NCBI GenBank assembly: GCA_016839805.1
Contig: JAEOTO010000020.1
Span: 1-17,875, forward strand
Direction of reading: 5' to 3'
Source: Candidatus Hermodarchaeota archaeon
GTDB taxonomy: Archaea; Asgardarchaeota; Hermodarchaeia; Hermodarchaeales; Hermodarchaeaceae
Length of the DNA stretch: 17,875 bases
In this document: one piece after another, positions 1-17,875 of the stretch
Layout: every line of letters begins with the position of its first letter
Position numbering within the stretch: the first letter of the stretch is position 1
Program-made: the position numbers and the translations under genes
The notes under the pieces: generated by a model
The model's database searches: none
Told to the model about the DNA's origin: nothing
The model's input: only the letters and a program-made list of their open reading frames with translations

Positions 1-141
1 AATCGGTTAAAAGCAAAAAAAACAATTTAACTATTTTATACGTAAAAGGAGTAAATTTTATATGCCGCAATAACCACTAAGAAAAAAGAGAGTAGAATCC
101 GTACCTCTCACAAGATAAAGACCAGAACCTACTGAGAGTGA

Positions 142-936: not shown

Positions 937-950
937 AAAGTGTGGATTAA

Positions 951-2198: not shown

Positions 2199-2335
2199 CA
2201 GGTAAAAAGTTAATGAAAACAGCTAGTTAGTAAATAGGCTGAAAATTAAAAAGATAGACTTAATTCCGAATTGATTGGTTCGGAAACCGAAACATAGAGA
2301 AGATATGATAGAATCGGTTCGATTTTCGATCAAAC

Positions 2336-3133
2336 TTACTTTCGAGCAGGTTGACTATATTTATCCAAGACCTGCCAAGCTACGGGTTTTATTGCGGGTT
2401 CGGTGAGATTGATTGGCATAGGATAACGAATGCCGACTTTCGTACCAGCCTTATCGAGAGCGTCGATTGTGTCGTGGAGCATCTCCACAGGCAATGAAAA
2501 GATTATTTCATAGTCTTGAACCGCGGCATAAACGCGATCGCCTGCACCAGGAATGACGACATTGGGTTTCCGAGAAAGAATGGTTTGGAGAATACCATTA
2601 ACACAACTTGCCGCTAGACCCATTTGTTTTGTGAGGATTGGTGCACCGGATTTGTAGATATTGGCTTGGATGAGTCGCATGATCTGAGTTGAATTGCCAT
2701 GGATGAGGACCACATCAGGTTCAACTTTTGTCCAACCTAAAGGTGAGATAATAATGCCTTCATATTCCCCAGGTGTTAGCATAGGAAAGTGTTCTCGCAT
2801 TGTGGCTGTTGCTGCGTCGGTTTCATAATAGTCCATGGCTCGAAAGGCTTCAATAAATCCCTGGTCATCTTTAAGTTCGTGGAACCCGTAAGCGACAAGA
2901 TTAGGGGTGCAGTTCATGTCTTCGGCGGTTAAACCCATGGTCCAACCGATTCGTCGTGAAAAGGTGTACCCTTGACACATTGTGATTTTCATGTTAAACA
3001 CATTAGGGCGTCGTGTCTTCTCAGGGAATTGGTCTTTACTTTTTACAAGCCGTATTGCTAAGGGAAAGGTTTGGAGACGAAGTTTCTCAGAAAGTATTCG
3101 GCCGTATTGATGGTACTGTTCAAATTTTGACAA
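2336..3133 (-). CDS. DUF169 family protein (ArCR, Cys-containing)
   Basis: L..FPLAI, conserved CQ...RR.G, later C residues (NCTP, ASC), PDVVLI.G...QIMRL and PGAGDR...E.IFSLP pattern typical of DUF169. Confidence 0.8.
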   Translation of the reverse strand: MSKFEQYHQYGRILSEKLRLQTFPLAIRLVKSKDQFPEKTRRPNVFNMKITMCQGYTFSRRIGWTMGLTAEDMNCTPNLVAYGFHELKDDQGFIEAFRAMDYYETDAATATMREHFPMLTPGEYEGIIISPLGWTKVEPDVVLIHGNSTQIMRLIQANIYKSGAPILTKQMGLAASCVNGILQTILSRKPNVVIPGAGDRVYAAVQDYEIIFSLPVEMLHDTIDALDKAGTKVGIRYPMPINLTEPAIKPVAWQVLDKYSQPARK

Positions 3134-3148
3134 GGTATGTTCATTCCA

Positions 3149-4402
3149 TTATTTGTGGTTCGCAATTACTTTCTCAGTTTTTTGAGCATGATAGATTAAA
3201 TAGATAATCCCAAAGTTGATAGGAAGTATAAGGCTACTAGCAATCAGGGGAAGAGCTGGTTGGAATGCGTAACTAAGACCACCAATATAGGGCGTAAGTG
3301 GTGAAATTGCCCGAGATGTCAAGACGAATGTAGCGAATGCATTCGGTAATTGACTGGGATGGATCTGATGAGAGATGATGGCGTTTGTGAGGATGTAACC
3401 TCCATAAGATAAACCTCGAATAACATAGGCTAGGGGAAGAAAGATGGGAACAGGGATGATGAATAAGAGCGCGTAGTAACTTATGGATCCAAGGATTGGT
3501 ATAGTAAGCATCTTAGTATAACCCCATCGATCGCCAGCAACTCCGAGGAGAGGCCCGAGAATAGCGCCACTAGCACTAAGTATGGTAAAGAGGACACCGA
3601 TTGTGGATTCCTCCAAACCAAATTTATCGTAGAGATAGAGGGGAACGAAGAAATCTGCGAAGGTGTAGACTGAAAATACGACACCCATGAAAATAGTCGT
3701 AAAAATGAATACTCGATTTTTAATGAAATCCCACCGCCAACGCCTTTTAAGACCTTCAGATTTCTGCGGAACAGCTGTGAGCGGAAAAAGAAGAAGTGTA
3801 CTAATGATATAGCAGATTACTGAGACAAGAAAAAGATTCGAGTAACCGAATAAGGAGATTATTAGGCCACCAATTGTGGGAGCAGGAATACCAGCGAAGG
3901 CAGAAGAGCTCGCAATGAGAGAGTATCCAATCCCGCGTTGTTTTCGACTAGTAACATGGGATGTATAAGTTCGAAATGGCGCCGAAGCTAATAATGCTGT
4001 TCCTTCAAAGAAGGCTGCAAGTAGTGCCCACTGCCATCCAAGAGTTTGGGCGAGGATGTAAATAATCGGTGCGGGAATAACGATTATCCAACCCAAAATG
4101 AGGAGTGGTTTTACACCAAAACGTGTGGTAAGGACTCCTCCTAGTCCTGTCCAAAGGATCCCACTTGCCATCATAATCGAGGAAAAGAGTCCTGCCTGAA
4201 CGGGGGTCGCCCCAATGCTAGTGAGGAAGATGCTAAGGAAATTCGTATAAAGACCTAGACCAAAAAACCACATGAAATTTGAGACTAATAGAAAACCATA
4301 ACTCCGTCGAGGGTGGTCAAGTATATCTGAATCCGATTCGACGGAACCAATCTCTTTTCCATCCAATTCGTAACCTAGGTTATTTTGCTCCATACGAATC
4401 AA
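3149..4402 (-). CDS. Major facilitator superfamily transporter (likely start ATG at 4393)
   Basis: About 12 TM helices; motif A-like loops GGVLTTRFGVK and GVAGDRWGYTK; RG.GYS in the N-terminal half. Confidence 0.92.
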   Translation of the reverse strand: MIRMEQNNLGYELDGKEIGSVESDSDILDHPRRSYGFLLVSNFMWFFGLGLYTNFLSIFLTSIGATPVQAGLFSSIMMASGILWTGLGGVLTTRFGVKPLLILGWIIVIPAPIIYILAQTLGWQWALLAAFFEGTALLASAPFRTYTSHVTSRKQRGIGYSLIASSSAFAGIPAPTIGGLIISLFGYSNLFLVSVICYIISTLLLFPLTAVPQKSEGLKRRWRWDFIKNRVFIFTTIFMGVVFSVYTFADFFVPLYLYDKFGLEESTIGVLFTILSASGAILGPLLGVAGDRWGYTKMLTIPILGSISYYALLFIIPVPIFLPLAYVIRGLSYGGYILTNAIISHQIHPSQLPNAFATFVLTSRAISPLTPYIGGLSYAFQPALPLIASSLILPINFGIIYLIYHAQKTEKVIANHK

Positions 4403-4515
4403 ACTTAATCTTAGTAGCAGATCAGACCCTGGATGTACCCTAATTAATTTTGCAATAAGTGAATTTTGAAGTCATGATTGGCTTCCTTTGTTAAAAACAG
4501 AAACCGAAAAGAGCT

Positions 4516-5016
4516 TCAGTAATTCTGAATGCGATTGAGGAAAGTATGTGGACTTTCAATTATCTTAATTTTAATTGGATTAAAGACCACTTGAACCCAG
4601 GGTTTGTCATCACCTCGTCGGTCTCCTTCAATGATGAATTCTTTCACAAGGTTTCCGTAACTTGGAGCGACACTGTTCAAGTGAGGATCAGTATCCAATA
4701 ACCGAACTCCACTGGCAGCATCAGATAGAATAGTTGCGATAAGAAACCCAGGGTGTTCATTCTCTAGGGAATAAGCGGTTTGGAGTCCGGATTGACCTTG
4801 GAAGAAGGTAAAATCATTATGTGTTTCAATTGCATCCATAAAGATTTCATAACTGAGTTGTAGGTTTCCAACCTTCCGGAGAATGACCAACACTGTTACG
4901 AAGGGACCATGCCCTGCGAATTCACGATCGCGTCCATCCACGTAGGGTGGATAGAATGGTTTTGAAGGTGAGATTTTCACATCGATTTCTTTTGAGAACG
5001 GCTGTTCCAATTTCAT
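4516..5016 (-). CDS. Hypothetical beta-rich protein (DREFxGHGP motif)
   Basis: 166-aa ORF with ATG start in an otherwise unoccupied interval; motifs DREFAGHGP, MDAIET.D.T, DTD, LVKEF...GD..GDD. Confidence 0.7.
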   Translation of the reverse strand: MKLEQPFSKEIDVKISPSKPFYPPYVDGRDREFAGHGPFVTVLVILRKVGNLQLSYEIFMDAIETHNDFTFFQGQSGLQTAYSLENEHPGFLIATILSDAASGVRLLDTDPHLNSVAPSYGNLVKEFIIEGDRRGDDKPWVQVVFNPIKIKIIESPHTFLNRIQNY

Positions 5017-5207
5017 TTTAATACCTATTATTAAGAGTATGTTCCACGGTTTTCAACTTACGGGAACCTTTAGGGTGAAAAAACTGCGATAGCCGGGAAG
5101 AACCAACGTTTTTAGGAACTTTTGGGTTCGGATTTCCTCAGAATTAGTATCCAATTCAAAAAACATAAACTCTAATATTAATGAAGAATTGATGAGGCTG
5201 ACAAGTC

Positions 5208-5372
5208 ATGGATGAGGAAAGTGAACTAAGTTGGAATGATGAAGAAATATCTTCACCTCTCAACCGTTGGCTCATTAGATGTTGTGCAGTCCTTATTATC
5301 GTCATCTTTATTACAGCATTAGTATTAGGATACGCTTCCTGGTTCTTCCCCTATCCATCCCCTTTCCCTTGA
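5208..5372 (+). CDS. Small single-pass membrane protein (54 aa), not in the ORF track
   Basis: ATG 5208 to TGA 5372: MDEESELSWNDEEISSPLNRWLIRCCAVLIIVIFITALVLGYASWFFPYPSPFP; acidic N-terminus, one TM helix, Pro-rich tail; AT-rich TATA-like TAATATTA at 5173-5180. Confidence 0.65.
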   Translation: MDEESELSWNDEEISSPLNRWLIRCCAVLIIVIFITALVLGYASWFFPYPSPFP

Positions 5373-5396
5373 ATTTTAAAATGGATAATAGTTGAC

Positions 5397-5403
5397 TTTA
5401 TTA
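5397..5403 (+). promoter_or_regulatory. Putative archaeal TATA box for ncRNA element 1
   Basis: TTTATTA located 21-27 nt upstream of the GGGAAG start of the structured element. Confidence 0.35.
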
Positions 5404-5423
5404 GATTTTTCCCGTTTAAGAAA

Positions 5424-5678
5424 GGGAAGTGGAACGGCTCCCCGGACATCCGAATGGACCAAGAGGTTGGAGGGAAATTGGAGCATTCGGTCCAGGTTTT
5501 CCAAGATTTCCAATGCTTGGGGGCCTACTGCTGGTGGACAACGGATTTCGGAAATTTTGAAAGTCAGACATCCTTTGGGGAGCCGTCTTCGGTGTCAGCT
5601 TGTTGACCTTGGAGGAATAATCTTGAACATGCTGATACAGTGAACCTCTTGGTTGTCATCCGCGTCCTTCCTGGTACG
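5424..5678 (+). ncRNA. Unclassified structured RNA, element 1 (about 255 nt, possibly extending to about 5790)
   Basis: Closing helix GGGAAG 5424-5429 with CTTCCT 5667-5672; 13-bp helix 5434-5446 with 5574-5586; hairpins 5473-5511 and 5592-5638; 11-bp perfect complement 5458-5468 with 5643-5653 crossing the first helix; G-U pairs favour the + strand; no credible CDS. Confidence 0.6.
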
Positions 5679-5834
5679 TTTCAGCAAGTAGAAAGTCTGT
5701 AATTCAGAGGTATATAGTCGTGGATACCGGCAAGTTCGAAAAGTAGTCTTTCAAGCTAAAAGAACAACAGGAAACCGAACTTACTGGTTCATTATTCATC
5801 CGATGAAAACTCGTAGAAGAAGAAGCCTATCTTG

Positions 5835-6812
5835 TTATGCTCCTGCTTGCTCTAAAATCTCGTCCAGTAGAATCTCCCTTAGACCTTTGAAGTGTCGCAT
5901 AGGATAGAGTACAAGAATTTCCACTTGATCAACCATCGGGCCACGTTTGATTCCATGGGCAATTCGTTCAAACAAATTCATATTATCAACGACAAAGGTA
6001 CTGAAAAGAATCGGTTCCGTGGCTGAAGTATAGGAATACCAATGCTCACGGGGGAACTGTTTTTCAAGCCATTCGACTAATTTTTTTGGTTCTACTTGAT
6101 TTTCGTCATAGGTGATTCGTGTTACGTATGATATGTTTCCACCGGAATTCAAGTTCCATATCGTACGAAAATGTATAGGTTCACTATAAGCACGATTTTC
6201 TGGCGGAATATCGTTCCGTATTATAAAGGCCCTAGTTGTACTCTTGTTTCCACCTAGCGTGTCGAGAACTCGTCGGATAGTTCGTGCAGTTAATCCAGTT
6301 CGTTTTGCTAGTTCCACTATAGACATACGAGCGTCTATTCTTAATTCCCGTAAGACTTTCAGTTGGAGCGGTTTGAACTCAATTTTTCCACCTTTTTCAG
6401 TTAATAGAGTGTGGATTTCAACCTGAGCAACTCCATCTAATCCGCGAAGGAACCTACTTAGATCAGCCAGTCCTTGGGCTCCCACATATTCTCCGAATAG
6501 CATTACGTCCCCACTAGATAGAAAAGCAGCTCGATGAACCATTGGATTAGTGCCAATCGTAGTAATGAGAACTTCATCGTCGTTGGATCCATCAGTTGTA
6601 ACAAAAGCCACAAACATTTCGGCATCGATCATCCCAAGACTTAACCAAATTCCAAACCGTTTGAGAATACCACATTTCTGAAGCTTGGTGACTCGCTTCT
6701 TAATTGCGTTGGCACTGAGGTTAAATTGTCTAGACAATGCCTCGTACGAGATGCGGCAATTTGCATCTAATTCGTAGAAAATCCCTTTGTCAATTTGGTC
6801 CACCGCAGACAC
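5835..6812 (-). CDS. Tandem (two-module) Lrp/AsnC-family winged-helix transcriptional regulator (alternative start GTG at 6803, MDQID)
   Basis: Two HTH modules, DQIDKGIFYELDANCRISYEALSRQFNLSANAIKKRVTKL and LQLKVLRELRIDARMSIVELAKRTGLTARTIRRVL, each followed by a RAM/ferredoxin-like domain. Confidence 0.88.
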   Translation of the reverse strand: MSAVDQIDKGIFYELDANCRISYEALSRQFNLSANAIKKRVTKLQKCGILKRFGIWLSLGMIDAEMFVAFVTTDGSNDDEVLITTIGTNPMVHRAAFLSSGDVMLFGEYVGAQGLADLSRFLRGLDGVAQVEIHTLLTEKGGKIEFKPLQLKVLRELRIDARMSIVELAKRTGLTARTIRRVLDTLGGNKSTTRAFIIRNDIPPENRAYSEPIHFRTIWNLNSGGNISYVTRITYDENQVEPKKLVEWLEKQFPREHWYSYTSATEPILFSTFVVDNMNLFERIAHGIKRGPMVDQVEILVLYPMRHFKGLREILLDEILEQAGA

Positions 6813-6814
6813 CG

Positions 6815-6958
6815 CGTACCAGGAAAGTAGTATCCTACCGAGTAGGGGAAGCTAGCTAACTGATAATTCAAGGCTATCAGTCTTAAGCTCTACTCGACAG
6901 CATTAAGCGAAAGAAAGTTCTTCGATTTAAGCTAAACCGTAGCTGCATTCCTTCCCAG
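6815..6958 (-). ncRNA. Unclassified structured RNA or leader, element 2 (about 144 nt, four-way junction)
   Basis: On the - strand: closing helix 6958-6951 with 6826-6819, arm 6946-6942 with 6901-6897, arm 6896-6890 with 6845-6839 (inner helix 6881-6875 with 6865-6859), hairpin 6838-6827. The arms abut without linkers, and G-U pairs favour the - strand. Confidence 0.55.
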
Positions 6959-6969
6959 ATTTCTCAGTA

Positions 6970-7413
6970 TCAGGGAGGTAATAACAGTTCAAATATTTTT
7001 CGAGATGGAGGTTTTGAAAATGAATGAGACGCTGTCCAAAGACAATCGTGCTTTATAACATCCAATGTGAATCCAGATTGATGTAGTCGCAAGAGATATT
7101 GCATTAATTCAATCAATCTAGATAATGTGTGCCCTAAATTATCATCCTTAGATGAATCCTGTGAATTATCCAAGGTTTCATCACGAACCTCTTTGCGGTG
7201 GGGTAACCAGACTTCCACTTCGATGGATACCATCTTGGGATCCTTTGTTGTCCGAAGTAAGAGTATTCGAAACGAACTGGTTTGCATGAGAGGAGTAACT
7301 GATTCCCCCAATTCAGATAATAATGAAGAGTTAACAGGGGAGGTAGTGATTTGCTGGTATTTTTGCATCAGTTCTTCAAGCTTCATCATTAATTCTTTTT
7401 TATCCCCTCCCAA
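6970..7413 (-). CDS. Hypothetical soluble protein (likely start ATG at 7389)
   Basis: ORF with natural composition filling the interval; no family recognised. Confidence 0.7.
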   Translation of the reverse strand: MGGDKKELMMKLEELMQKYQQITTSPVNSSLLSELGESVTPLMQTSSFRILLLRTTKDPKMVSIEVEVWLPHRKEVRDETLDNSQDSSKDDNLGHTLSRLIELMQYLLRLHQSGFTLDVIKHDCLWTASHSFSKPPSRKIFELLLPP

Positions 7414-7562
7414 GGTGAGTTATTTATTCATGGCAACCGCAGGGTTCGGAAATAATACAAAGGTCCCTGTTCTAGGGAGAAATTGTAAATCGTCTGGTTC
7501 GTTTTAATTCATTCTAAAGTAATTGGATATTTTCACCCAAATGATAAATCTCTTATGCAAGC

Positions 7563-9011
7563 ATGGGGAAACTAATGACATGTTCATGTATGGATGGAAA
7601 TAGATTGGTTAGAAAAAGATTCCATCCAAGACCCAGCTTCACCATTTTCATTTTGGTATCGCTCATGCTAGCCCCAATATGGATCCAAATCTCATATGAA
7701 TTACCGAAAACATCGAACAATAACCATCCATCATCAACAGAATATCATAGAGGATCTAGCCTAGAACAGCCAACCAATCTGGAACACATGCAGATAGAAA
7801 AAATGTGGAACCGAACCTACAGCCGTTCGATGTACGATATCGGGTATGGGATAATCGAATGTCACGATGGTGGATTTGCGATAATTGGGGCTACCCAGCA
7901 AACAAGCATGGAAATGAGTCACCGATACAATTTATGGCTAATCCGAACAGATGCCTCAGGAAACGAGCGCTGGAACACTAGTTTTGGCCAAATAGGTTAC
8001 GATGGAGGGTATGATCTCGTTGAATGCCCTGACGGTGGATTCGCTCTTCTGGGATATTCAATGAACAATCAAAGTGATGCATCTGATATCTTTGTGGTGA
8101 GAACGGATGCCCAGGGGGGCCTCCTTTGGCATAGAATTCATCAAGTCACTGGTTCAGATTCAGGCTATTCGATTATACGGGTCCGTGCAGGTGGCTTTGC
8201 AGTGCTATGTAATCTCATGTTTCGTGAGACATATTTACTTCGAATTGGTGAGGATGGATCTTGGTTGTGGAACCAAACCTTTCCAGTGCCATCTCTTCGT
8301 ACGAATAAGGGACTTGTTGAATGTCCGGATGGAGGATTTGCATTTATTGCTAGTAATGATCCCCTCCGATGGTCCAGTGTAGGACTGTTTCGAACTGATG
8401 CGAATGGACAAATGTTATGGAATCGCTCATTTGGTGATGTTTCAGACACATATTCTGGACGAGGGTTGGTGCTATGCTCTGATGGAGGATTCGCCTTCAC
8501 CGGAGGTATATGGACAACAAATACAAATAATTGGGATATATGGTTGGTTCGTTCCGATTCTCAAGGTACCCTCTTATGGGATCGAAGTTTCGGAAGTTTG
8601 GAGTATGAAATTGCATATTCAATAACTCAAATCCAGGGAGGAGGATTCGCGTGTACAGGAATAGTGGAAACCGCTGAGGGATTTCATAATATCAGATTAG
8701 TAATTACGGATCCATTAGGAGAAACACTATTGGATCATAGAATTGTATGCTATAGTAATTATCGAGCATATTCTATTGTCGAATGTAAAGATGGAGGACT
8801 GGCATTTACCGGGGGATTTGATGAGGGAGATACTGGAATGAACTTGATATTATTCCGAATACCTGGAAACCCAAATTCGATTCTTACTAATCGAGTTGTG
8901 TGGGTTATTCTCGTTTTATTGCTTCCTCTGATGACTAGTGTCCTAGTGGTTTGGATTGCACTTCATTTTCTTCGATCAAAGGGCAAACAAAAGAAGGCCA
9001 AATCGCCGTAG
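7563..9011 (+). CDS. Cell-surface beta-propeller-like repeat protein with N-terminal signal/TM and C-terminal TM anchor
   Basis: About 7 repeats of about 50 aa, consensus D.GY.I.EC.DGGFA..G......WL.RTD..G..LWN.TFG; C-terminal TM followed by RSKGKQKKAK. True start may be downstream of 7563. Confidence 0.85.
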   Translation: MGKLMTCSCMDGNRLVRKRFHPRPSFTIFILVSLMLAPIWIQISYELPKTSNNNHPSSTEYHRGSSLEQPTNLEHMQIEKMWNRTYSRSMYDIGYGIIECHDGGFAIIGATQQTSMEMSHRYNLWLIRTDASGNERWNTSFGQIGYDGGYDLVECPDGGFALLGYSMNNQSDASDIFVVRTDAQGGLLWHRIHQVTGSDSGYSIIRVRAGGFAVLCNLMFRETYLLRIGEDGSWLWNQTFPVPSLRTNKGLVECPDGGFAFIASNDPLRWSSVGLFRTDANGQMLWNRSFGDVSDTYSGRGLVLCSDGGFAFTGGIWTTNTNNWDIWLVRSDSQGTLLWDRSFGSLEYEIAYSITQIQGGGFACTGIVETAEGFHNIRLVITDPLGETLLDHRIVCYSNYRAYSIVECKDGGLAFTGGFDEGDTGMNLILFRIPGNPNSILTNRVVWVILVLLLPLMTSVLVVWIALHFLRSKGKQKKAKSP

Positions 9012-9114
9012 AGTATTCCTGATGAGTTACCGGTATCCTAAGCTTTTTTTGGGATTTCACAATGAAACACCAATGATGGTTGTTTCCGACTCATGAACGA
9101 GGAGACTCACTGAA

Positions 9115-9468
9115 TTGATTGTCAAACATATTCGCGACAACCTGAGTAACCGTGATGGTACCTTACGTCTCCTAGGAATCTGGGATGATACTCTAAACCC
9201 TGGTACGTTAGTTGATCCTCATTCTCACCCCAATATTGAAGAAGTCTACTATATCCTTGAAGGTAAAGGGGAAGTCTTGGTAGGTCAAGAAACCCAACTT
9301 GTTAGCCCTGGACACATCATCTACATCCCCCCGAATACCATACACACAATTAGACCACGAGAGAATAAACCCCTTAGATGGATTACGATAGCAATTGCGA
9401 TTGATTCCCAATCCGAGCCTTCAAAAATAAAATCTAAACCACGTACACAAGAACCCTATATCGTTTGA
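9115..9468 (+). CDS. Cupin domain protein
   Basis: Metal-binding motifs PHSHPNIEEVYYILEGKG and GHIIYIPPNTIHTI; SD-like GAGGAG at 9099-9104 before the TTG start. Confidence 0.9.
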   Translation: MIVKHIRDNLSNRDGTLRLLGIWDDTLNPGTLVDPHSHPNIEEVYYILEGKGEVLVGQETQLVSPGHIIYIPPNTIHTIRPRENKPLRWITIAIAIDSQSEPSKIKSKPRTQEPYIV

Positions 9469-9561
9469 ACACGAAAATTGTAGAGTCCAGAGTTTTGTAG
9501 ATTGTAAATTTAATAGAGGGCACTGAGACTTATACTTGAAAATGTAAATGGACGGATCTTA

Positions 9562-10047
9562 ATGCCAAAGGATGATCAAGAAAAATCATGTTTGTCAGAT
9601 TTAGGCGGATTAATCCAATTATTTGGCGGGATCCTTGTTTTAGGGGCTCAAGTCACCCTGTTTTTTTTCCTTCAAGGCTTCTTAGCCTGGATCACCACGC
9701 AGCCTCCAGATCTGCAGATTCTTTTTGGCCAGCTAGCATTGATGCTTTTAATCTCAATCGCCATCATGGTAATCTGTGGAATTGTAACTATTCTAGCGGG
9801 TTTTATATCGTTTTACCGTAGTGGGACTCTTGGTGGATTTCTAGCCCTGTTTTTGGGAATTATTGTATTAGCCGTTGGTATCTGGTTAACTTTCGGTCTG
9901 AGTCTTTATCCCGGTCCCCTTCAATATGCTAGCGGGGTGCTGGCAATAGTAGGTGGCATTGTAAGTATCATTCCAGCATGGAAGCCACCTCAAGAACCTG
10001 AAAGTCGAAGACAACGCGATCAACGAGAACGAGAAAAACGGAAATAA
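9562..10047 (+). CDS. Four-TM Gly-rich membrane protein with basic C-terminal tail
   Basis: 161-aa ORF, four hydrophobic helices, RRQRDQREREKRK tail. Confidence 0.8.
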   Translation: MPKDDQEKSCLSDLGGLIQLFGGILVLGAQVTLFFFLQGFLAWITTQPPDLQILFGQLALMLLISIAIMVICGIVTILAGFISFYRSGTLGGFLALFLGIIVLAVGIWLTFGLSLYPGPLQYASGVLAIVGGIVSIIPAWKPPQEPESRRQRDQREREKRK

Positions 10048-10147
10048 ATGATTTGAATTTGGATGAGGAACCGGAGGTCGAGGGCGGGTTATTAGCTCTT
10101 TGCACTGCATGAAATATGGTGATACAAGGAAGGAATGTGTTGCTGAA

Positions 10148-11554
10148 CTAGCTAAGAATTCGCCTAAAGGAATAGCGTGAAAATACGAAAATAATGGGTA
10201 GAAAGACCAATGCTCCAAATATGATAGTTGCACCCTTAGCTATCAGAAATAGTTGATAACGAATTAGCATCTCAGATACTGTTGAGACATAGAGATTGCT
10301 GTTCAAATACACCGTAGACCCATCTAAGGTGTAATATACTAACTGAGATGCTGATTGGAATTTTTGTAGATGAACAAGATAGCTGTATTGGGAATCAATC
10401 ATCACAAGATCGACATACGAATTCTGTGTGGGGATATCAGTGAGTAGGATTGGGGAGTCCCAACTCGTGCCAATTCGCTTCATAATATAGAAACGAATTA
10501 GTAAGTTCCAGGAAGAAGCCACAAAGTTAGGAGGGGGAATAAAATGTTCTTGCCCTAAGAGTTGAAGGTTATTATCTGAATCCACTTCCAAATCGAAGAG
10601 TCGTCCGGGAATTTGATCAAAATGAGTAGTTGCACTCCACGTTTGGTTATAGTAGGATCGGTGAAAAATATCACCTGAATATTCACACCATACAACATGA
10701 ATTGTTTCATCCGGACTCATAACCACCAACCATTCATCAAGACCCCAGGTGCCATTATTAACCAGTACGTCTTGAGACCAGGATCCATTGCGATAGGAAC
10801 GAAATGCTAGCCCAAAGTTATCTTGACTGTAATTATCCCAGAAAAAGTAAAGGTGGTCATCGAAACCTGCCAAGAGCTGTGATCGTTGTAGATAATGAGC
10901 ACCCTCAGCTGTCTCATCTAACAAGGTTACTGGAGGTAACATCGATCCAACTTGCCAACACTGGAGTTGCCACTGAGAATCAGATAGGTGGTTGAGATAA
11001 AAGGCATGAAGAGTGCCATTCAACCCATATTGGAGTTGAAATTTGGATACCACATGGGTATTGGGAAGTATTTGGATGGTTGACCAGGCTGTGTTATTGT
11101 ACACTCGAAGATAGCCTTGTCCATCTCTTGGATCAAAATACCAATTAGGGAGGGGTTGAATCCACCCAATAGCGATATTTCCTGTTGAATCACATGTCAG
11201 GGTGGTTCGAATATCTTCAGAATAAGACCAGATTTGATAAGGTAACCAATTGGTTCTAAATGGTTCTGATATGAGTATCGGATCAATATCGTGAGTAGGG
11301 GCCTGGTATTTCATGACACAGCGTACGGAACCATTGGGGAGAGAGATTACTTCTCCCCAGCATACTTGTAACTGGTTAGCCCCATCTAATTCCGCTTGAG
11401 GGGATATTGGACCAATTGCCGGTTGATAATACAACCCATCTATTGCGGGGGCAGTCATAACGGATACAAAAAGGAAGACCCCAATTATCATCACTTGGAA
11501 AAGAATAATCAGAGTAGGCTTAAGCGATTGTGAAGAATTAGGGCTCCTTGTCAA
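10148..11554 (-). CDS. Cell-surface beta-propeller/BNR-like protein with N- and C-terminal TM segments (start reassigned from 11791 to TTG 11554)
   Basis: Repeats of D..G..H..W...Y......WS; TTG 11554 is in frame and overlaps the upstream TGA (TTGA coupling), and is followed by a signal-like hydrophobic stretch. Confidence 0.75.
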   Translation of the reverse strand: MTRSPNSSQSLKPTLIILFQVMIIGVFLFVSVMTAPAIDGLYYQPAIGPISPQAELDGANQLQVCWGEVISLPNGSVRCVMKYQAPTHDIDPILISEPFRTNWLPYQIWSYSEDIRTTLTCDSTGNIAIGWIQPLPNWYFDPRDGQGYLRVYNNTAWSTIQILPNTHVVSKFQLQYGLNGTLHAFYLNHLSDSQWQLQCWQVGSMLPPVTLLDETAEGAHYLQRSQLLAGFDDHLYFFWDNYSQDNFGLAFRSYRNGSWSQDVLVNNGTWGLDEWLVVMSPDETIHVVWCEYSGDIFHRSYYNQTWSATTHFDQIPGRLFDLEVDSDNNLQLLGQEHFIPPPNFVASSWNLLIRFYIMKRIGTSWDSPILLTDIPTQNSYVDLVMIDSQYSYLVHLQKFQSASQLVYYTLDGSTVYLNSNLYVSTVSEMLIRYQLFLIAKGATIIFGALVFLPIIFVFSRYSFRRILS

Positions 11555-12204
11555 GGTAGTACACCTTCCCAAAGTAATTGTATCCGATAATGTGGTGGGG
11601 GTTGATTTCGCCAGTCTCGTTGTTGAAACGTGGTAAATAGAAACCATAGGAAGATACCGATCATGAAAAGGGTGATAATGGAAGTGAGATAGAGGAATAA
11701 CGCACTTATGAACACCGATAAGCTGGTTAGCATACCTAACAAGAAAGTGCAGGAGTTGGCTATTACCGTAGTGGCTCCAATGAATTGCCAATGATTGAGG
11801 GGACCAAGCTCGTTTGTTGTTCTACCTGGTATTTGGAGAAACCATTTGGTTCCACTTCGCCAGAACCAGAATTCGAGGAGAATAGGAGCTAAGAAAAATC
11901 CGATGAACACACCCCAGGGATTGTAAGCAAGGTTAATTCCTAGGTGAAGAAGAACAGTGTATGAAGGTGATGTTATGGGGCTGATGAAAAGGCCAAAGAG
12001 TAAGATGGCAATTCCAAAGGATAAGGGTGTGCTGATGACCTGAACAAAACTCATGTAACCAAGAATATGGACAGCGCGGATATTCCCTAGTTGGCGTTTG
12101 AGTATCTGGTGCCAGACGAGGCCCTCAATGAAGGCACTCATGGCCCAGCTAGCTAACAGCGATCCTAATAACAGGTAAATTTCGTATGAATATAGCACGC
12201 TCAT
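11551..12204 (-). CDS. Polytopic membrane protein, unknown function
   Basis: 217-aa ORF with about 5 TM helices; stop overlaps the start of the downstream surface protein. Confidence 0.75.
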   Translation of the reverse strand: MSVLYSYEIYLLLGSLLASWAMSAFIEGLVWHQILKRQLGNIRAVHILGYMSFVQVISTPLSFGIAILLFGLFISPITSPSYTVLLHLGINLAYNPWGVFIGFFLAPILLEFWFWRSGTKWFLQIPGRTTNELGPLNHWQFIGATTVIANSCTFLLGMLTSLSVFISALFLYLTSIITLFMIGIFLWFLFTTFQQRDWRNQPPPHYRIQLLWEGVLP

Positions 12205-12300
12205 AACTATGATCCCTCACCGTTGCACCAAATGCTAGAAGGAAGAGCAGGCTTTTTAGATTGTGCTGTGGGCAAATAAATATTGAATTCATTGGAAGTG

Positions 12301-12753
12301 ATGTTCGTGAGTTTGGATGAGTATCGGGCAAAACGCGATTTTAGCAAAACTTCTGAACCCCCTCCAGAAGTCAAGGTTAGTGCTGGTAACTTATATGTAA
12401 TTCAACGGCATGAAGCCAGAAATCTGCACTGGGACCTTAGACTAGAACAGAATGGAGTTTTAGTGAGTTGGGCAGTACCTAAGGAACCACCCACAAAAAA
12501 AGGGGTCCGTCGACTAGCCATTCAAACAGAAGATCATCCATTAGAGTATGCTAGTTTTTCGGGGACAATTCCTGAGGGCGAATATGGTGCTGGGAAAGTG
12601 GAGATTTGGGATAGGGGAAATTTTGAAACGGAGAAATGGGAAGAGAAGGAGATCATCGTGATTCTACATGGGAAGCGCTTAGAGGGACAATATTGTCTTA
12701 TTCGGTTTCAAAAAGTCAAGGACGGTTGGCTGTTCTTCCGCTGTGGACCGTAA
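12301..12753 (+). CDS. Stand-alone DNA 3'-phosphoesterase (LigD PE domain)
   Basis: LDEYRAKRDFSKTSEP, VIQRHEARNLHWDLRLE, SWAVPK, RLAIQTEDHPLEY, GTIPEGEYGAGKVEIWDRG are diagnostic LigD_N/PE motifs; no ligase or polymerase domain is fused. Confidence 0.93.
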   Translation: MFVSLDEYRAKRDFSKTSEPPPEVKVSAGNLYVIQRHEARNLHWDLRLEQNGVLVSWAVPKEPPTKKGVRRLAIQTEDHPLEYASFSGTIPEGEYGAGKVEIWDRGNFETEKWEEKEIIVILHGKRLEGQYCLIRFQKVKDGWLFFRCGP

Positions 12754-12861
12754 GAGGCCTTTTTGTCGAGGCAATCTTGTCACATAGACAATCTTTTAGG
12801 TTTAAACAGAGAATTATACATATTCGTTAAAGTCACGTTTTGACTGGAGAGAAGCCATCAG

Positions 12862-13722
12862 GTGAAGCTGGTCACCTACGTAACAGATGCTGGTCCCCGC
12901 GTTGGTTGTATTGATGATGGAGAGGTTGTACCAACACCCGGCATCCCGGATATAATTAACTTATTCTACGATCCCTCATTGGAACACTCCATTGAAGCGG
13001 CCTTGAAAGGACGGATTGATGCACAACCCCTTAACGAAGTGGAACTTCTTGCACCGATCCCCAGGCCCACCAAAATCATCGCTATTGGACTCAACTATCG
13101 TGATCATGCTGAGGAAACAGGGCAAAAACTACCTAAAGCCCCTATCTTATTTTCAAAACCACCAACTGCTGTTATTGGTCATGAGTCGAATATCATTATC
13201 CCTGACGGTGCTTCACAGGTTGACTACGAAGTAGAGCTCGGCGTTGTTATGGGTAAGGGTGGACGGAATATTCCTGTCGAACTTGCTTTAGACTATGTAG
13301 GTGGTTATACCGTATTCAACGATATATCTGCACGGGACTATCAATTTCGTGATGGGCAGTGGTTCCGAGGTAAAAGCTTTGATACTTTCGCTCCAATGGG
13401 TCCATGTCTCACCCTCCCGGATCAGATTCCTAATCCCCAAGAATTGAAGATGCAACTTCGACTTAATGGAAAAACGCGTCAAAAAAGTTCAACGGCAAAC
13501 ATGGTTTTTTCCGTTGCCGAGTTGATAGCTGATATTTCCCAGGTCATGACGTTTGAACCAGGAGATGTTATAGCTACTGGCACGCCCTCTGGCGTTGGGT
13601 TTAAAGTTAAACCGAAGCCCATCTTTCTTCAAGATGGCGATTTAGTTGAAGCAGAAATTGAGGGAATTGGTATACTCCGGAACCCTGTTATAAAAAAATC
13701 ACACATTCCCCTAGATTCTTAA
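12862..13722 (+). CDS. Fumarylacetoacetate hydrolase family protein
   Basis: KIIAIGLNYRDH, DYEVELGVV, NDISARD, GKSFDTFAPMGP, GDVIATGTPSGVG; SD-like GGAG upstream of the GTG start. Confidence 0.95.
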   Translation: MKLVTYVTDAGPRVGCIDDGEVVPTPGIPDIINLFYDPSLEHSIEAALKGRIDAQPLNEVELLAPIPRPTKIIAIGLNYRDHAEETGQKLPKAPILFSKPPTAVIGHESNIIIPDGASQVDYEVELGVVMGKGGRNIPVELALDYVGGYTVFNDISARDYQFRDGQWFRGKSFDTFAPMGPCLTLPDQIPNPQELKMQLRLNGKTRQKSSTANMVFSVAELIADISQVMTFEPGDVIATGTPSGVGFKVKPKPIFLQDGDLVEAEIEGIGILRNPVIKKSHIPLDS

Positions 13723-13756
13723 TCCATGATTAAGAACCCGTATACGGGAAATTCTA

Positions 13757-14725
13757 ATGCCGTTAACTGGTGTGGATTTGTTGCTCACTTATCAATGCAC
13801 AAGTCGATGCCACCATTGTCTTTACCGAGCGGGTTCGCATCACCAAGATTTAATGTCAGAACAACAATTTCATGCTATCCTCGAATCCCTCGAAGGATTC
13901 CCTCTTCGTTGGATCATGCTGTTTGGTGGAGAACCGCTTCTTTTTCAAGATCAACTATACCAATGGATTAACACGATTTCTAAGCGATTTCCATCTGTGA
14001 ATAGAGGCATTATCACTAACGGTTTCTGGGCTAAAACGGCTGAAGACCGTAGACAGATCCTAAGGAAATTAAGTGCAGCTGGACTAACCCACCTATCACT
14101 AAGTTATGACAGCTTCCATGCCCGCTTCGTTAATCCCGAATATATCCAAAGGATTTTGAATGAGTTAAAAACTGATGATTTCCAAAAAGTGACAATTGAT
14201 TCCTACTTCCTCTTTGGAGAAAATGCACAAAACGATTACAATTACAAAACCAATAGACTGCTTGAGCAATTAAATATCCCATCTTTTGTGGTACTTCAAA
14301 AGTTTAACGTGTTAACAGTAGGACGAATGGTTGATCACCTTCAAGGCAATTCGACCCTATACACTTTCGATGATTCACCTTGTCAAGTACCCTATTGGTT
14401 AGGATCCAGCCTTGCTCAATTATCAACCATCGAAATTGACAGTGCCGGATATGTTACTCTTTGTCCTGGTATTACGATTGGTAACATGCACCAAATGCCA
14501 CTTCATGAAATTATCTCATCCTATAATCCAATTCAACATCCCATAATCCATGCCCTTACTAGCACAGGTATTGGGGGACTTATTCAACTAGCGCAAGAAC
14601 ACAATGTAAAAATATCGACCTTAAAGGTCAGTAGTGCCTGTCATGCCTGTTACATACTCCGTCGTGCTTTACTTGACACATTTCCAAACTACCTCGCACC
14701 CCGACATCTATATGGATCTGATTAG
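13757..14725 (+). CDS. Radical SAM protein with C-terminal Cys-containing (SPASM/twitch-like) extension
   Basis: CxxxCxxC (CTSRCHHC), GGEPLL, ITNGFWA, LSYDSFH; C-terminal PC..., LCPG..IGN, CHAC. Confidence 0.92.
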   Translation: MPLTGVDLLLTYQCTSRCHHCLYRAGSHHQDLMSEQQFHAILESLEGFPLRWIMLFGGEPLLFQDQLYQWINTISKRFPSVNRGIITNGFWAKTAEDRRQILRKLSAAGLTHLSLSYDSFHARFVNPEYIQRILNELKTDDFQKVTIDSYFLFGENAQNDYNYKTNRLLEQLNIPSFVVLQKFNVLTVGRMVDHLQGNSTLYTFDDSPCQVPYWLGSSLAQLSTIEIDSAGYVTLCPGITIGNMHQMPLHEIISSYNPIQHPIIHALTSTGIGGLIQLAQEHNVKISTLKVSSACHACYILRRALLDTFPNYLAPRHLYGSD

Positions 14726-16689
14726 GATTCTGGATTATTTTCCTCATTAGAATAGTCGAGTAACTGTTTTTGCTGTTCAGTGTGCGAATCGCGTTTTGAG
14801 AGTTTAAATTCCGATTCATCGGTAGTGAAAGGTTCATGGGATTTGTCCGAGAGGAATATGTCAAGCCCTCGTGACTGTTTCCGAGGAAACTCGATTTGCA
14901 TAGGACCCAAAACCTGTTCAAAGGCCATGTCAAGTTTCCTGATATAATCAGGCACATCGATTTCATTTCGTGTAGCCATACGAGTGGGCTTTACACTAAA
15001 AGTTCGGGCACCATACCGGAAGGGTTTCACCTTTACAAAGCCGATTTCATCTCGTTTCTTTACTTTGATACCTTTATCTTTCAGTTGCTCAAGGGCTTGA
15101 TAGGGTTGTGGAAGTCCCGCTCCTTTTCGGCGTTCCTTATCTGCCCTCCAAAGTTTCACTCGATATTCAAGATCTTCAACGGTGAATTCACGCCGACGAA
15201 GCTTGGATATCTGTTGTTTAAGAATCTCAATAATCTTAGGACCAACTTGGGCTAGTTTTTTAGGGTTATCAATACCTTTGAGAGGTTTGACAGCTTCTAG
15301 AAAGATTTGGCGGAATCGTGGAGGCGTGCTGGATTTTCCTAAAGTAATTCCTTTAATGTCGGGTGTTCCATCGGGAAGCATTCCGAAATAGGCTTTCTTT
15401 GCAGAACTAAAGACACAGAGTGGATACACCACATCTACAGCAAGAATGAGATCGAGCTCATCTTTTACTTTTGCAATGAGCCAGTTGATCTGTTTAAGAG
15501 TTGGTTGGTCCAAAAAAAGCGAATCGGTATCACCATAGATAGGACGCATACCCTTCTCAACAGCGTAATCCCAGCTGTTTCGTAATGACCATCGCCCATA
15601 GGCCATCATGGACTCTGCAAGGGGAGGAGATGCAAGACCATGGATTCGAATAGTTACGCCACCACTACTCACCAATAAAAATTTCAGAAGATCTGAGATA
15701 ATTTGTGCTTTCTTGCGTTCCTCAGTAGGTATATCCTTCTGGCGGCTTAAGGGTTTAAACCAATGAATACGTAAATCTTTAAGTGCACCAATCAAGGCAC
15801 TGAAGATACCACGACGATGTGTACAAACATAGTGGGGCTCATCAGGTACCTGATTAGATTGACATTCAGGGTGACCACAATTCATTGTCTCATAAGCGAG
15901 ATTATATCGATCAATCAAGCTCGGATATAGTGACTCGAAATCCACAACTGTCATGTTATAATAGACACCGGGTGTTGGTGCTATTGTCAAGGCACCTTCC
16001 ACGCGATGAGGTGTGTGCCCCAGTGTAAGTTCTTCTGGATTAGGGATTAAAATATCAAGGTGCCGATAACTGGTGTGTAGCATCGACCGAATCCAATCAG
16101 AAACGCTCCGGCTTTTCAAGGCGCGTTGGAAAGGAATATTAGCAATTCGAGCAAGCATAACACCCCAGAGTAGTCTGGAATCATCATATTTTTCTTCAAT
16201 ACGCAATAGGTCCCGAGGTATTTCTGGTACAGGTTGAATCGCGTAGCTGAAGAATTCCTTCAATAGATCAAATTTCAGGGGATCTTCATCAGCGGTTTGC
16301 GCAAATTTTGTGTTAAATGCATCGAGTTGATTCCTTGGTAAATGTAAGTTAAGTTGATGTCCTTTCAGTGTTGGCTTGTGAGGACACCAGAATCGGAGCA
16401 GCTGATCATAAATATAGCTTGATGCTGGTTTAAGGTCACGTTCCCATTCTCGCTCAGTTTCCACCATACTATCCATTGGAATAGAGGCTACTGTGAGAAA
16501 CTCGTCGTTCATCAAGTCTTTTCGTTTAACTTGCGTTCCTAAGCTGGCGGGTAAGGCATAGAAATGCGGGGTAAAATCATCATGAACTGTGATCAGCTGT
16601 TGTTCGGGTGTCTGTAAATATGTAAGCTCAACGCGCCCAAGAACAGCATCATAGGCTGCATCCAATAACCAGAGGTGACTATCAGACAT
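14722..16689 (-). CDS. polB: Family B DNA polymerase, PolB1-like, lacking the 3'-5' exonuclease domain and with divergent motif B
   Basis: Motif A DFESLYPS (about 15919-15942), motif C YGDTDSLF (about 15514-15537), KKAYFG, PolB1-type YETMNCGHPEC...HYVC and LKDLR; no ExoI DIE motif; 655 aa. Confidence 0.9.
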   Translation of the reverse strand: MSDSHLWLLDAAYDAVLGRVELTYLQTPEQQLITVHDDFTPHFYALPASLGTQVKRKDLMNDEFLTVASIPMDSMVETEREWERDLKPASSYIYDQLLRFWCPHKPTLKGHQLNLHLPRNQLDAFNTKFAQTADEDPLKFDLLKEFFSYAIQPVPEIPRDLLRIEEKYDDSRLLWGVMLARIANIPFQRALKSRSVSDWIRSMLHTSYRHLDILIPNPEELTLGHTPHRVEGALTIAPTPGVYYNMTVVDFESLYPSLIDRYNLAYETMNCGHPECQSNQVPDEPHYVCTHRRGIFSALIGALKDLRIHWFKPLSRQKDIPTEERKKAQIISDLLKFLLVSSGGVTIRIHGLASPPLAESMMAYGRWSLRNSWDYAVEKGMRPIYGDTDSLFLDQPTLKQINWLIAKVKDELDLILAVDVVYPLCVFSSAKKAYFGMLPDGTPDIKGITLGKSSTPPRFRQIFLEAVKPLKGIDNPKKLAQVGPKIIEILKQQISKLRRREFTVEDLEYRVKLWRADKERRKGAGLPQPYQALEQLKDKGIKVKKRDEIGFVKVKPFRYGARTFSVKPTRMATRNEIDVPDYIRKLDMAFEQVLGPMQIEFPRKQSRGLDIFLSDKSHEPFTTDESEFKLSKRDSHTEQQKQLLDYSNEENNPES

Positions 16690-16816
16690 ATGTAGGTATC
16701 TCCAAGGCTACGCCAAGAATGAGGAATTCCCCTTGCTTTAAGGTTGTGCTCGATGTCACATGATTGAATGCCATAATCAGTAGAGCATTATAGAGGTTTG
16801 GAATAACCTGACAATC

Positions 16817-17440
16817 ATGACATGGCTTGATAAGTTCAAAACAGCCTTACAACGTTTTATCGGTAGTCCAGTTAAGGAGCAAGTCTTAGAAGATATAAGC
16901 ACTATTTCCGCTAAAAGTAGTCCAATACGCAAAGCCGAATGGATAAAGGCTACCATGGACAGACTGGACACATTAGTTAAAGATGATGAAACACGCCGAG
17001 AAATCCTCTTATGCTGTTCCCACCGATTCCCAAAAACTCGAATTCAAAAGCTTAAGAAAGAATATCGTAGACTCGGTGACCTTGACGCGTTACTTCAACT
17101 AATGCATAAAGACAATTCTTGGGAAGGACTTTCATATTATGAGTATCCCAAACGGGAAGGAAATATCATTTACGTAACCAAAATCCCTTTCAATCCGAAA
17201 AAATATGAAACGGCAACAACTGAGGATGAGAAGCGTCAGGCATATTGCCATTGTGGCTGGGTGAAAGCTACAAAAGAGCCGATTTCAAAGACCTTTTGTT
17301 ACTGTGGCTCAGGCTGGTATAAGACGTTATGGGAAGAAATCTTCGAAAGACCTGTGAAGGTCGAGATAGTTACTACTGTTGCCAGTGGCGACTCGGATTG
17401 CACCTTTGCCATTCACCTTCCCTCGAATCTAACCCAATAG
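16817..17440 (+). CDS. Cys-rich V4R-like (DUF6144-type) protein
   Basis: CCSH, YCHC, FCYCGSGWYKTLWE, PVKVEIV.TV..G...C.F.I C-terminus. Confidence 0.7.
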   Translation: MTWLDKFKTALQRFIGSPVKEQVLEDISTISAKSSPIRKAEWIKATMDRLDTLVKDDETRREILLCCSHRFPKTRIQKLKKEYRRLGDLDALLQLMHKDNSWEGLSYYEYPKREGNIIYVTKIPFNPKKYETATTEDEKRQAYCHCGWVKATKEPISKTFCYCGSGWYKTLWEEIFERPVKVEIVTTVASGDSDCTFAIHLPSNLTQ

Positions 17441-17498
17441 GAGAACGGACTTCACAACTTGAATTCAATCGAGATTGGATTTCTGAATAATCTGAGAC

Positions 17499-17875
17499 TC
17501 AGAAATAGATGGGAAGTATTGCTGCCATGATCCAAGCGAACAGCAAGGCATTGAACAGAACAGCTATGTAGAAGCGGTTACTGAGGCGATAGGACCAGGC
17601 GATGACCGTTGTAGAGACAGCAAAGAATGGGATAAATATGTAGAGGAAGATAAGCTGGAATCCAATGGAACCAGATATCAATGCACCCCCAATTGCTACG
17701 CTTCCTATAACTTGAATAATTATGATTGAAGCGTAAAGCAAGATTTTTATGAAGATTGCCTTAACGGTCCAGAAGGTTTGCGTTGAATACCACGTCTCTT
17801 TAGGAGTAGTTCGTAAAAGTCCCATAAGCCATAATCCTTCAATTAAGACGAATGGGAGTAGTAGTAAGAAATATA
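17499..17875 (-). CDS. C-terminal multi-TM portion of a membrane protein, 5'-truncated by the window edge
   Basis: The frame stays open upstream of ATG 17825 to the window end (YFLLLLPFVLIEGLWLM...); hydrophobic helices ending NALLFAWIMAAILPIYF. Confidence 0.75.
   Translation of the reverse strand, partial: YFLLLLPFVLIEGLWLMGLLRTTPKETWYSTQTFWTVKAIFIKILLYASIIIIQVIGSVAIGGALISGSIGFQLIFLYIFIPFFAVSTTVIAWSYRLSNRFYIAVLFNALLFAWIMAAILPIYF

Follow-up and report, generated by a model that had tools for sequence, protein, structure and literature searches.

The window is a stretch of 17,875 nt from a Candidatus Hermodarchaeota archaeon (assembly GCA_016839805.1, contig JAEOTO010000020.1, positions 1 to 17,875). 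It has, on the reverse strand, a gene for a 655 amino acid (aa) family B DNA polymerase (PolB), termed P0001. This protein has no exonuclease domain and displays an unusual form of the polymerase motif B. A Pfam search of P0001 finds PF00136 as the sole domain (74 bits vs a gathering cut-off of 23) and shows no match to the exonuclease domain PF03104. The PolB1 equivalog model NF004417 gives 332.8 bits, but only over profile positions 424–849 of 858, i.e., the polymerase half, and the score is below the whole-protein equivalog cut-off of 780 bits. The PolB2 models NF004416/NF004418 give 66.6 and 50 bits. The closest sequence match determined by HMMER is PolB1 of Saccharolobus solfataricus (Sso PolB1, 1s5j; 210 bits).

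Structure modeling with AlphaFold2 (AF2) and 120 relatives in the alignment gives a model with a predicted local distance difference test score (pLDDT) of 87.8 and a predicted template modeling score of 0.82; the tail is disordered from residue 605. The top structural match is again 1s5j, with Z 35.2 and a root mean square deviation of 3.1 Å over 503 aligned residues. Solved PolB structures overall show Z values of 22–35, and the complexes of the Thermococcales PolBs 9N and KOD are at about 24. The right-hand fold of palm, fingers and thumb, together with the PF00136 match, identifies P0001 as a family B DNA polymerase.

A global hhalign alignment between the family profile and PolB1 shows how the exonuclease domain is missing. 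The N-terminal domain aligns up to QPVPEIP, the point where PolB1 enters the ExoI D-I-E sequence. About 190 PolB1 residues that carry ExoI–III (positions about 193–385 in P0129) are without a counterpart, and the alignment picks up at the pre-palm helix. Every conserved exonuclease column is a gap. Exonuclease loss had been proposed in the initial annotation, and the Pfam search, the hhalign alignment, the conserved-column check and the structure match show that the whole domain is gone. The best NCBIfam, Protein Data Bank (PDB) and structural matches of P0001 are all PolB1. Because profile scores, hhalign and structure matches all point in this direction, P0001 is a PolB1 derivative from which the proofreading domain has been cleanly removed.

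The sequence of motif B in P0001 is KFLLVSSGG, encoded by AAA TTT TTA TTG GTG AGT AGT GGT GGC. It represents a variant of the family B consensus KxxxNSxYG and not an absence of it, as the Lys and the last Gly are present. HMMER pairs the segment with KVFINATYG of Sso PolB1 (1s5j) and with motif B of KOD, and hhalign pairs it with KV..NASYG when compared with 21 canonical PolB1 proteins. The position occupied by Ala or Ser is Ser341. The replacement read by the initial annotation is thus real, being found by both methods and in all 41 Gly-bearing clusters of relatives with varied codons. Since these 41 clusters are 56–91% identical and the codons differ, the variant is not a product of chance or of sequencing error. 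The range first assigned to it, 15658–15690, contains the motif at 15658–15684 (aa 336–344), and the remainder only adds L334-L335. The correspondence of KxxxNSxYG to K560/N564/Y567/G568 of RB69 gp43 agrees with the published numbering (PMC3564110, PMC5009745).

Homologues of P0001 form two clades, one from Asgard archaea (56–91% identity, 645–664 aa) and one from Bathyarchaeia (41–48% identity, about 615–650 aa). The family is well separated: an exhaustive search of a 50%-identity library gives about seven family clusters with at least 394 bits, and the next sequences are canonical PolB1 proteins with at most 305 bits. The gene is present with an intact frame in all 19 species genomes (72–91% complete) of the GTDB family to which the window belongs. 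A sample of the phylum outside of this family, with 282 genomes from 29 families, does not contain it, and it was found in 22 of the 201 genomes sampled in the class that holds a Bathyarchaeota chromosome. This distribution is patchy, which implies a transfer between Bathyarchaeia and the Hermod ancestor, in either direction. Five complete Bathyarchaeota chromosomes each have a PolB of roughly 900 aa plus the short form. Four of the five have a further PolB, about 770–790 aa in three of them, which is read as PolB2-type; for one of the four, chromosome G001, a match to the PolB2 model NF004416 was found. Among the PolB2 homologues, a 765-aa protein from Bathyarchaeia has the motif B K...V..FG.

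One relative, the metagenomic protein P0122 (L110:2707-7305 (+), 1532 aa), has a PriCT_1 primase-type N-terminal region fused to a family member with 42% identity and the motif B KLITVSSYG. It was the sole longer or fused form found. On the 11.8 kb contig that carries it are also a MazE-like gene, a TIR/TPR gene and small genes without a known identity, and the contig may be a mobile element.

A tree of polymerase domains shows the family to be monophyletic, with a Shimodaira-Hasegawa approximate likelihood ratio test (SH-aLRT) value of 100 and a long stem. It is nested in PolB1 diversity with moderate SH-aLRT values of 83–95, in a tree that is rooted on a single long PolB2 branch. Sister to the family is a small clade whose proteins (P0255, P0242 and P0250; 784–847 aa) are full-length and keep ExoI (DIE), ExoII (NGDxFD-like) and ExoIII (Yx3D). 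These three proteins appear to represent an undescribed PolB1-like group: their motif B sequences are KVLLVSSYG, KIAVLTHYG and KIGLLTHYG, without the Asn, and they have odd motif A sequences (DVHSLYP, DFTSLYP and DFRGLYP).

The two motif B substitutions have different histories. Every one of the 120 family members in the initial retrieval has Val340 and Ser341, vs 100% Asn and Ala in the canonical PolB1 sample. The exonuclease-proficient sister clade also has no Asn at this position, with Val or Leu instead, and 101 of 103 PolB2 homologues have K...V..FG. The PolB2 count agrees with a reported resemblance of B1 and B2 in motif B (Kazlauskas et al., PMC7544198). As the change is also found beside intact ExoI–III and in PolB2, Asn to Val is neither unique nor coupled to exonuclease loss. 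One subclade of the family (P0126, P0392–P0399; seven members covering the motif) has returned to the canonical KLLLNASYG. The nearest relative of this subclade is P0045, with KLLLVSSYG; the reversion thus involves two residues and may have come about through gene conversion with PolB1.

In contrast to the Asgard members, the Tyr at position 343 is kept in all Bathyarchaeia members, in the sister clade and in PolB1. The Asgard clusters display Gly in 41 of 43 cases and Phe in two, and the tree shows a single Tyr to Gly change on the fully supported Asgard stem followed by one later change to Phe. Of the two motif B changes, then, only Tyr to Gly is special to the Asgard clade. The initial annotation had combined the motif B change with exonuclease loss in its argument for a mutator or translesion enzyme. 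This reading is supported in part: the Asn to Val component carries less weight than was supposed, as it is also present in the exonuclease-proficient sister clade and in PolB2.

Other differences are associated with the Gly. Fixed differences between the Asgard and Bathyarchaeia clades are found at 17 positions only, and besides Gly343 the residues M246, M361, M362, M381 and G451 are fixed in the Gly-bearing clade only. Met246 is four residues ahead of the motif A Asp, Met361-Met362 are in Tx2GR, and Met381 precedes motif C. This pattern looks like a coordinated remodelling around an intact catalytic centre.

The substitutions are maintained by selection. A comparison of orthologues shows that V-S-x-G-G is conserved in place of the canonical NxxYG, so that the initial annotation is not refuted by the orthologue test that it had set. 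Among 18 Asgard loci, Gly343 is encoded by GGT, GGA and GGC and Val340 by GTG, GTT, GTC and GTA. The gene-wide ratio of nonsynonymous to synonymous substitutions (dN/dS, Nei-Gojobori) is 0.09–0.12 in six unsaturated pairs. Synonymous codon turnover and the low dN/dS rule out a decaying pseudogene or a private mutation.

The positions of the features discussed here are listed in Table 1.

Table 1. Features of the P0001 gene, in order along the protein; positions are those of the window
Feature	Positions	Strand	Basis
Whole gene, exonuclease-deleted PolB1-derived family B DNA polymerase P0001, 655 aa	14722..16689	(-)	Open reading frame, Pfam, NCBIfam, AF2, structure match
N-terminal domain, aa 1-151, beta-rich, kept	16237..16689	(-)	AF2 model, hhalign, structure match
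Deletion scar, aa 152-176; QPVPEIP and a short linker lead to the post-exonuclease helix	16162..16236	(-)	Global hhalign profile alignment
Motif A DFESLYP; D250 metal ligand, Y255 steric gate; Glu252 for PolB1 Ala	15922..15942	(-)	Invariant in 120 relatives; Ala to Glu family-specific
Fingers helix N segment LKDLRIHWFK; basic K304, R307, K312, pairing with motif B at the triphosphate	15754..15783	(-)	Alignment
Motif B KFLLVSSGG, K336-G344; Asn to Val340, Tyr to Gly343, Lys336 and Gly344 kept	15658..15684	(-)	HMMER, hhalign; predicted fingers helix 322-348
Tx2GR motif as MAYGR; Thr to Met362, plus Met361; fixed in the Gly-bearing clade only	15592..15606	(-)	Alignment
Motif C YGDTDS, D387 and D389, intact	15520..15537	(-)	Invariant in 120 relatives
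KxY/KKxY motif as AKKAY; PolB1-invariant Asn (RKKNY) is Ala433 family-wide; K432 and Y434 invariant	15388..15402	(-)	Alignment
PIP-like box 1 QSRGLDIFL, aa 605-613	14851..14877	(-)	Pairs with the C-terminal ..L.DF. end of canonical PolB1 and Bathyarchaeia members
PIP-like box 2 QKQLLDYS, aa 640-647; tail extension of the Asgard clade only, consensus QKRLxD[YF]	14749..14772	(-)	Alignment

Outside of the two altered positions in motif B, the active-site motifs are well conserved. The residues D250, Y255, K336, G344, R307, D387, T388, D389, K432 and Y434 are invariant in the 120 relatives. In helix N, R307 and K312 are invariant and K304 nearly so, the first basic residue being Lys where PolB1 has Arg. 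The steric-gate Tyr of SLYP had been noted as kept, and DFESLYP is indeed found in every one of the 120 relatives. The Tx2GR and KxY motifs are contact sites for the primer terminus and duplex. Family-wide departures from PolB1 in the substrate-contact motifs are Glu252, Lys304, Ala353, Pro383 and Ala433.

Two further sites concern the protein outside of these motifs. Between motifs A and B, C271, H273, C276 and C289 (aa 271–289, window 15823–15879 (-)) are invariant and may form a metal site. This cluster was considered as a family novelty and rejected, as canonical PolB1 profiles have the same C-x-H-x2-C...C pattern. In the N-terminal domain, a P-Y-F sequence present in at least 90% of relatives is P-H-F in P0001 (aa 42, window 16564–16566 (-)). 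The equivalent of this P-[Y/H] site in Thermococcales PolB is P36-Y37, which lines the pocket that senses uracil.

The C-terminal tail has two segments that resemble a PCNA-interacting peptide (PIP). The helix at residues 607–613, which falls in box 1, is the sole helix in the disordered tail of the AF2 model. When compared with Qxx[LIM]xx[FY][FYLW], QKQLLDYS fits positions 1, 4 and 7 only, and SRGLDIFL fits positions 4, 7 and 8 without the Gln at position 1; both boxes are conserved in the clade. When residues 590–655 are modelled in complex with the PCNA of the same genome, the prediction scores 0.60 vs 0.08 for the best control, with a run agreement of at least 41% and a partner pLDDT of at least 38. 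The 0.60 mark is reached by 58 of 80 solved complexes and by 2 of 110 mismatched pairs. This prediction weakly suggests that the tail may bind PCNA; the score may reflect memory, as PIP-PCNA complexes have already been solved.

In the genome that contains P0001 there are also a canonical PolB1 with an intein (974 bits to NF004417), a PolB2 (P0121), PolD DP2 and a Y-family polymerase. The canonical PolB1 (L007:2116-7113 (-), contig C49) is encoded as a precursor of 1665 aa that carries intein and LAGLIDADG insertions, none of which are found in the exonuclease-less paralogue. P0121 is a true PolB2, with 375 bits to NF004416 and 361 to the second PolB2 model (NF004418). It is located at L008:1758-3965 (+) on contig C17, has the motif B KFLLVVSFG and the motif C HGIVD, and is flanked by a clostripain-type peptidase gene upstream and an aminotransferase gene downstream, with no recognisable iRadA or PPB2 gene. 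The window stretch itself turned up only in DNA runs of sediment metagenomes, and no RNA run was listed for the gene.

The P0001 gene stands alone. Its neighbours encode a radical SAM protein, an FAA hydrolase, LigD_N, DUF6144 and an alpha/beta hydrolase and are mostly metabolic. Among 18 Asgard loci, an alpha/beta hydrolase gene is upstream in 15, and an FAA hydrolase gene and a LigD-type 3'-phosphoesterase gene are each present in 11, both downstream on the opposite strand. In the window the 3'-phosphoesterase is a stand-alone LigD_N gene at 12283–12753 (+) (PF13298, 140 bits), about 2 kb away and convergent. Its adjacency may represent a functional link to end-processing repair or just close kinship. 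No conserved RadA-like gene, small helical partner or polymerase accessory subunit was found in the neighbourhoods.

These properties are best explained, with a probability of about 0.6, if P0001 is an active, PCNA-tethered, non-proofreading and error-tolerant polymerase with relaxed base-pair checking, i.e., a tolerance of mismatches or lesions. Its ancestor would have been an archaeal PolB1 from which a clean deletion within the gene removed the whole 3'-5' exonuclease domain, with the pocket remodelled afterwards in two steps. In the first, which would be family-wide, the motif B Asn, a residue that in RB69 makes a water-mediated contact to the beta-phosphate, would have been replaced by Val, the state also present in PolB2. 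In the second, at the base of the Hermodarchaeia clade, the motif B Tyr, the "back wall" and minor-groove sensor, would have been replaced by Gly, accompanied by the four Met gains near motif A, Tx2GR and motif C. With neither proofreading nor the geometry check by Tyr, mismatched or damaged pairs would be inserted and extended far more readily than by PolB1, and the retained Tyr255 would still select deoxynucleoside triphosphates (dNTPs) over ribonucleotides. One or two of the C-terminal PIP-like boxes would tether the enzyme to PCNA. Its role would be in clamp-bound, short-patch, error-tolerant synthesis, such as extension from lesions and mismatches or gap-filling in repair, beside PolD, PolB1, PolB2 and PolY.

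The predicted low fidelity is extrapolated from the RB69 Y567A and phi29 Y390S mutants. The RB69 enzyme uses K560 as the general acid, and its N564 has a water-mediated contact to the beta-phosphate; Y567 acts as a minor-groove sensor and forms the central part of the wall at the back of the base-pair pocket (PMC3564110, PMC5009745, PMC3799440). RB69 Y567A has a higher error rate, better binding of mismatched DNA and about 10-fold faster mismatch incorporation (PMC5009745). In phi29, Y390S loses the discrimination against dA opposite 8-oxoguanine (8-oxoG), and Y390F has an altered extension preference (PMC1976434). Sulfolobus PolB2 (Dpo2), which is exonuclease-less, is active and serves as an extender during translesion synthesis (PMC8764526, PMC7390963).

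A more specific proposal is tentative, and the odds are somewhat against it: that P0001 is a natural proofreading-free core-gene PolB of Hermodarchaeia, in which the minor-groove back wall has been removed by Tyr to Gly and repacked with Met, and that it represents a new family B solution to translesion synthesis or mismatch extension whose ancestor came through the Bathyarchaeia-Asgard transfer. If true, this solution would be distinct from PolB2, Pol zeta and the Y-family, and it might be adapted to adducts in the minor groove or to bulky adducts of the template.

Several observations argue against an error-tolerant polymerase. Asn to Val coexists with intact ExoI–III in the sister clade, so by itself it is not an error-prone marker. 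An exonuclease-less subclade has reverted to N-A-S-Y-G, and the role of the family is thus not strictly dependent on Val. A further translesion enzyme would be partly redundant, as the genome already has PolB2 and a Y-family polymerase. No linked damage-response or accessory genes (iRadA, PPB2, PBP1/2) were found. The pocket geometry is read from the alignment, and the four Met gains might refill the Tyr cavity and restore selectivity.

The alternative that survives best, although unlikely, is a specialised polymerase that is not especially error-prone. In this case motif B would retune dNTP affinity, translocation or substrate range and not fidelity, for example to suit scarce dNTPs, the filling of gaps, strand displacement, or a primer or template of an unusual kind, with proofreading dispensable or supplied in trans. 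Consistent with this are the Val beside an intact exonuclease in the sister clade, the Tyr retained by the Bathyarchaeia majority of the family, and the role of the Asn, which touches the triphosphate and not the base pair (PMC3564110). The Met changes may be compensatory and keep the shape of the pocket. The LigD-type 3'-phosphoesterase gene about 2 kb away, present in 11 of 18 Asgard loci, and the fusion of one relative to a PriCT-1 primase-type region are also in favour. However, a small residue at the equivalent Tyr reduced fidelity in both enzymes for which data were found (RB69 and phi29), the phosphoesterase gene is convergent and not co-transcribed, and its synteny may reflect close kinship alone. 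The neighbourhood search shows no evident trans-acting exonuclease partner nearby.

It is improbable that P0001 is a non-catalytic or barely active structural paralogue, i.e., a PCNA or replisome scaffold comparable to the inactive C-terminal half of Pol epsilon. Two residues that are usually "invariant" are gone, other PolB1-invariant DNA-contact residues are altered (N433A, K451G and Y353A), and PolB2 was long predicted to be inactive on similar grounds (PMC7544198). PolB2, however, turned out to be active (PMC8764526). The metal-binding Asps, the general-acid Lys, the steric gate, KxY and the basic residues of helix N are invariant over about 40% sequence divergence, and the whole-gene dN/dS is about 0.1. 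The initial annotation had kept a non-catalytic paralogue as its alternative; the invariance of all catalytic and dNTP-binding residues except for the Asn and Tyr makes it unlikely. A private decay mutation, a pseudogene or an assembly error in this metagenome-assembled genome is refuted by the comparison of orthologues, which shows the motif in 41 clusters of independent assemblies with differing codons, an intact frame in 19 of 19 related genomes and purifying selection, and nothing was found in its favour.

The significance of P0001 is that the Tyr and Asn of motif B have been treated as invariant signatures of family B and are central to models of base selection. Here both residues have been replaced and proofreading discarded in a natural lineage that is found throughout one Asgard family and evolves under strong purifying selection. 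It thus represents an evolutionary experiment on how the fidelity of family B is built, with paired natural controls in the Bathyarchaeia with Tyr, the one subclade that reverted to Asn, and the exonuclease-proficient sister clade with Val. P0001 is a fifth DNA polymerase in these Asgard archaea and bears on the reconstruction of replication and repair in archaeal relatives of eukaryotes. Such enzymes might serve as scaffolds that accept modified nucleotides. A search of the text and available supplements of Kazlauskas 2020 showed no reference to Bathyarchaeota or to a PolB1 group that lacks the exonuclease, and a 2025 paper on Asgard replication does not mention Hermod. Further full-text literature searches found no description of the family, although absence there is no proof of its being unpublished.

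A comparison with archaeal PolB1 (Saccharolobus solfataricus Dpo1, 1s5j, NF004417) shows that P0001 shares the N-terminal domain, palm, fingers, thumb, SLYP and YGDTDS, as well as the C-x-H-x2-C...C cluster after motif A and a PIP-like C-terminal end. It differs from PolB1 in the absence of the exonuclease domain (ExoI–III), in its score of 333 bits vs the 780-bit cut-off, and in the changes of NAS-Y to VSS-G in motif B, Ala to Glu in motif A, KKNY to KKAY, and Thr to Met in Tx2GR.

P0001 resembles PolB2/Dpo2 (PMC8764526, PMC7390963, PMC11791011) as a family B paralogue with a lost or decayed exonuclease that is found beside replicative polymerases, and in that missing "invariant" residues once led to the suspicion that PolB2 is inactive. 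The Val in place of the motif B Asn is also shared, a likeness drawn from the 103 PolB2-type homologues and the papers. No PolB2 structure was found in the PDB by sequence. Unlike PolB2 operons with iRadA and PPB2 (PMC11791011), the P0001 locus has neither gene. P0001 has an intact DTD, whereas PolB2 is usually without the first motif C Asp (HGIVD in P0121); its residue at the motif B Tyr site is Gly, whereas that of PolB2 is aromatic (Phe); and it scores only 50–66 bits on PolB2 models.

Pol zeta and Pol alpha keep the Asn and Tyr of motif B. P0001 is similar to Pol zeta (Rev3) and Pol alpha in having a family B core without an active 3'-5' exonuclease. However, these enzymes keep an inactivated exonuclease fold, which is deleted in P0001, and have Cys-rich C-terminal domains and accessory subunits, which are absent in P0001. 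Pol zeta is an extender of mismatches and lesions (PMC7544198).

The closest parallel to the Gly343 substitution is provided by the mutants RB69 gp43 Y567A and L561A/S565G/Y567A and phi29 Y390S/F, where a small side chain takes the place of the same residue. The RB69 and phi29 mutants are still active, with a loss of base-pair discrimination and altered handling of 8-oxoG (PMC5009745, PMC3799440, PMC1976434). Unlike these lab-made variants of proofreading replicases, the change in P0001 is natural, ancient and fixed under selection, and it is combined with Asn to Val, deletion of the exonuclease and nearby changes to Met.

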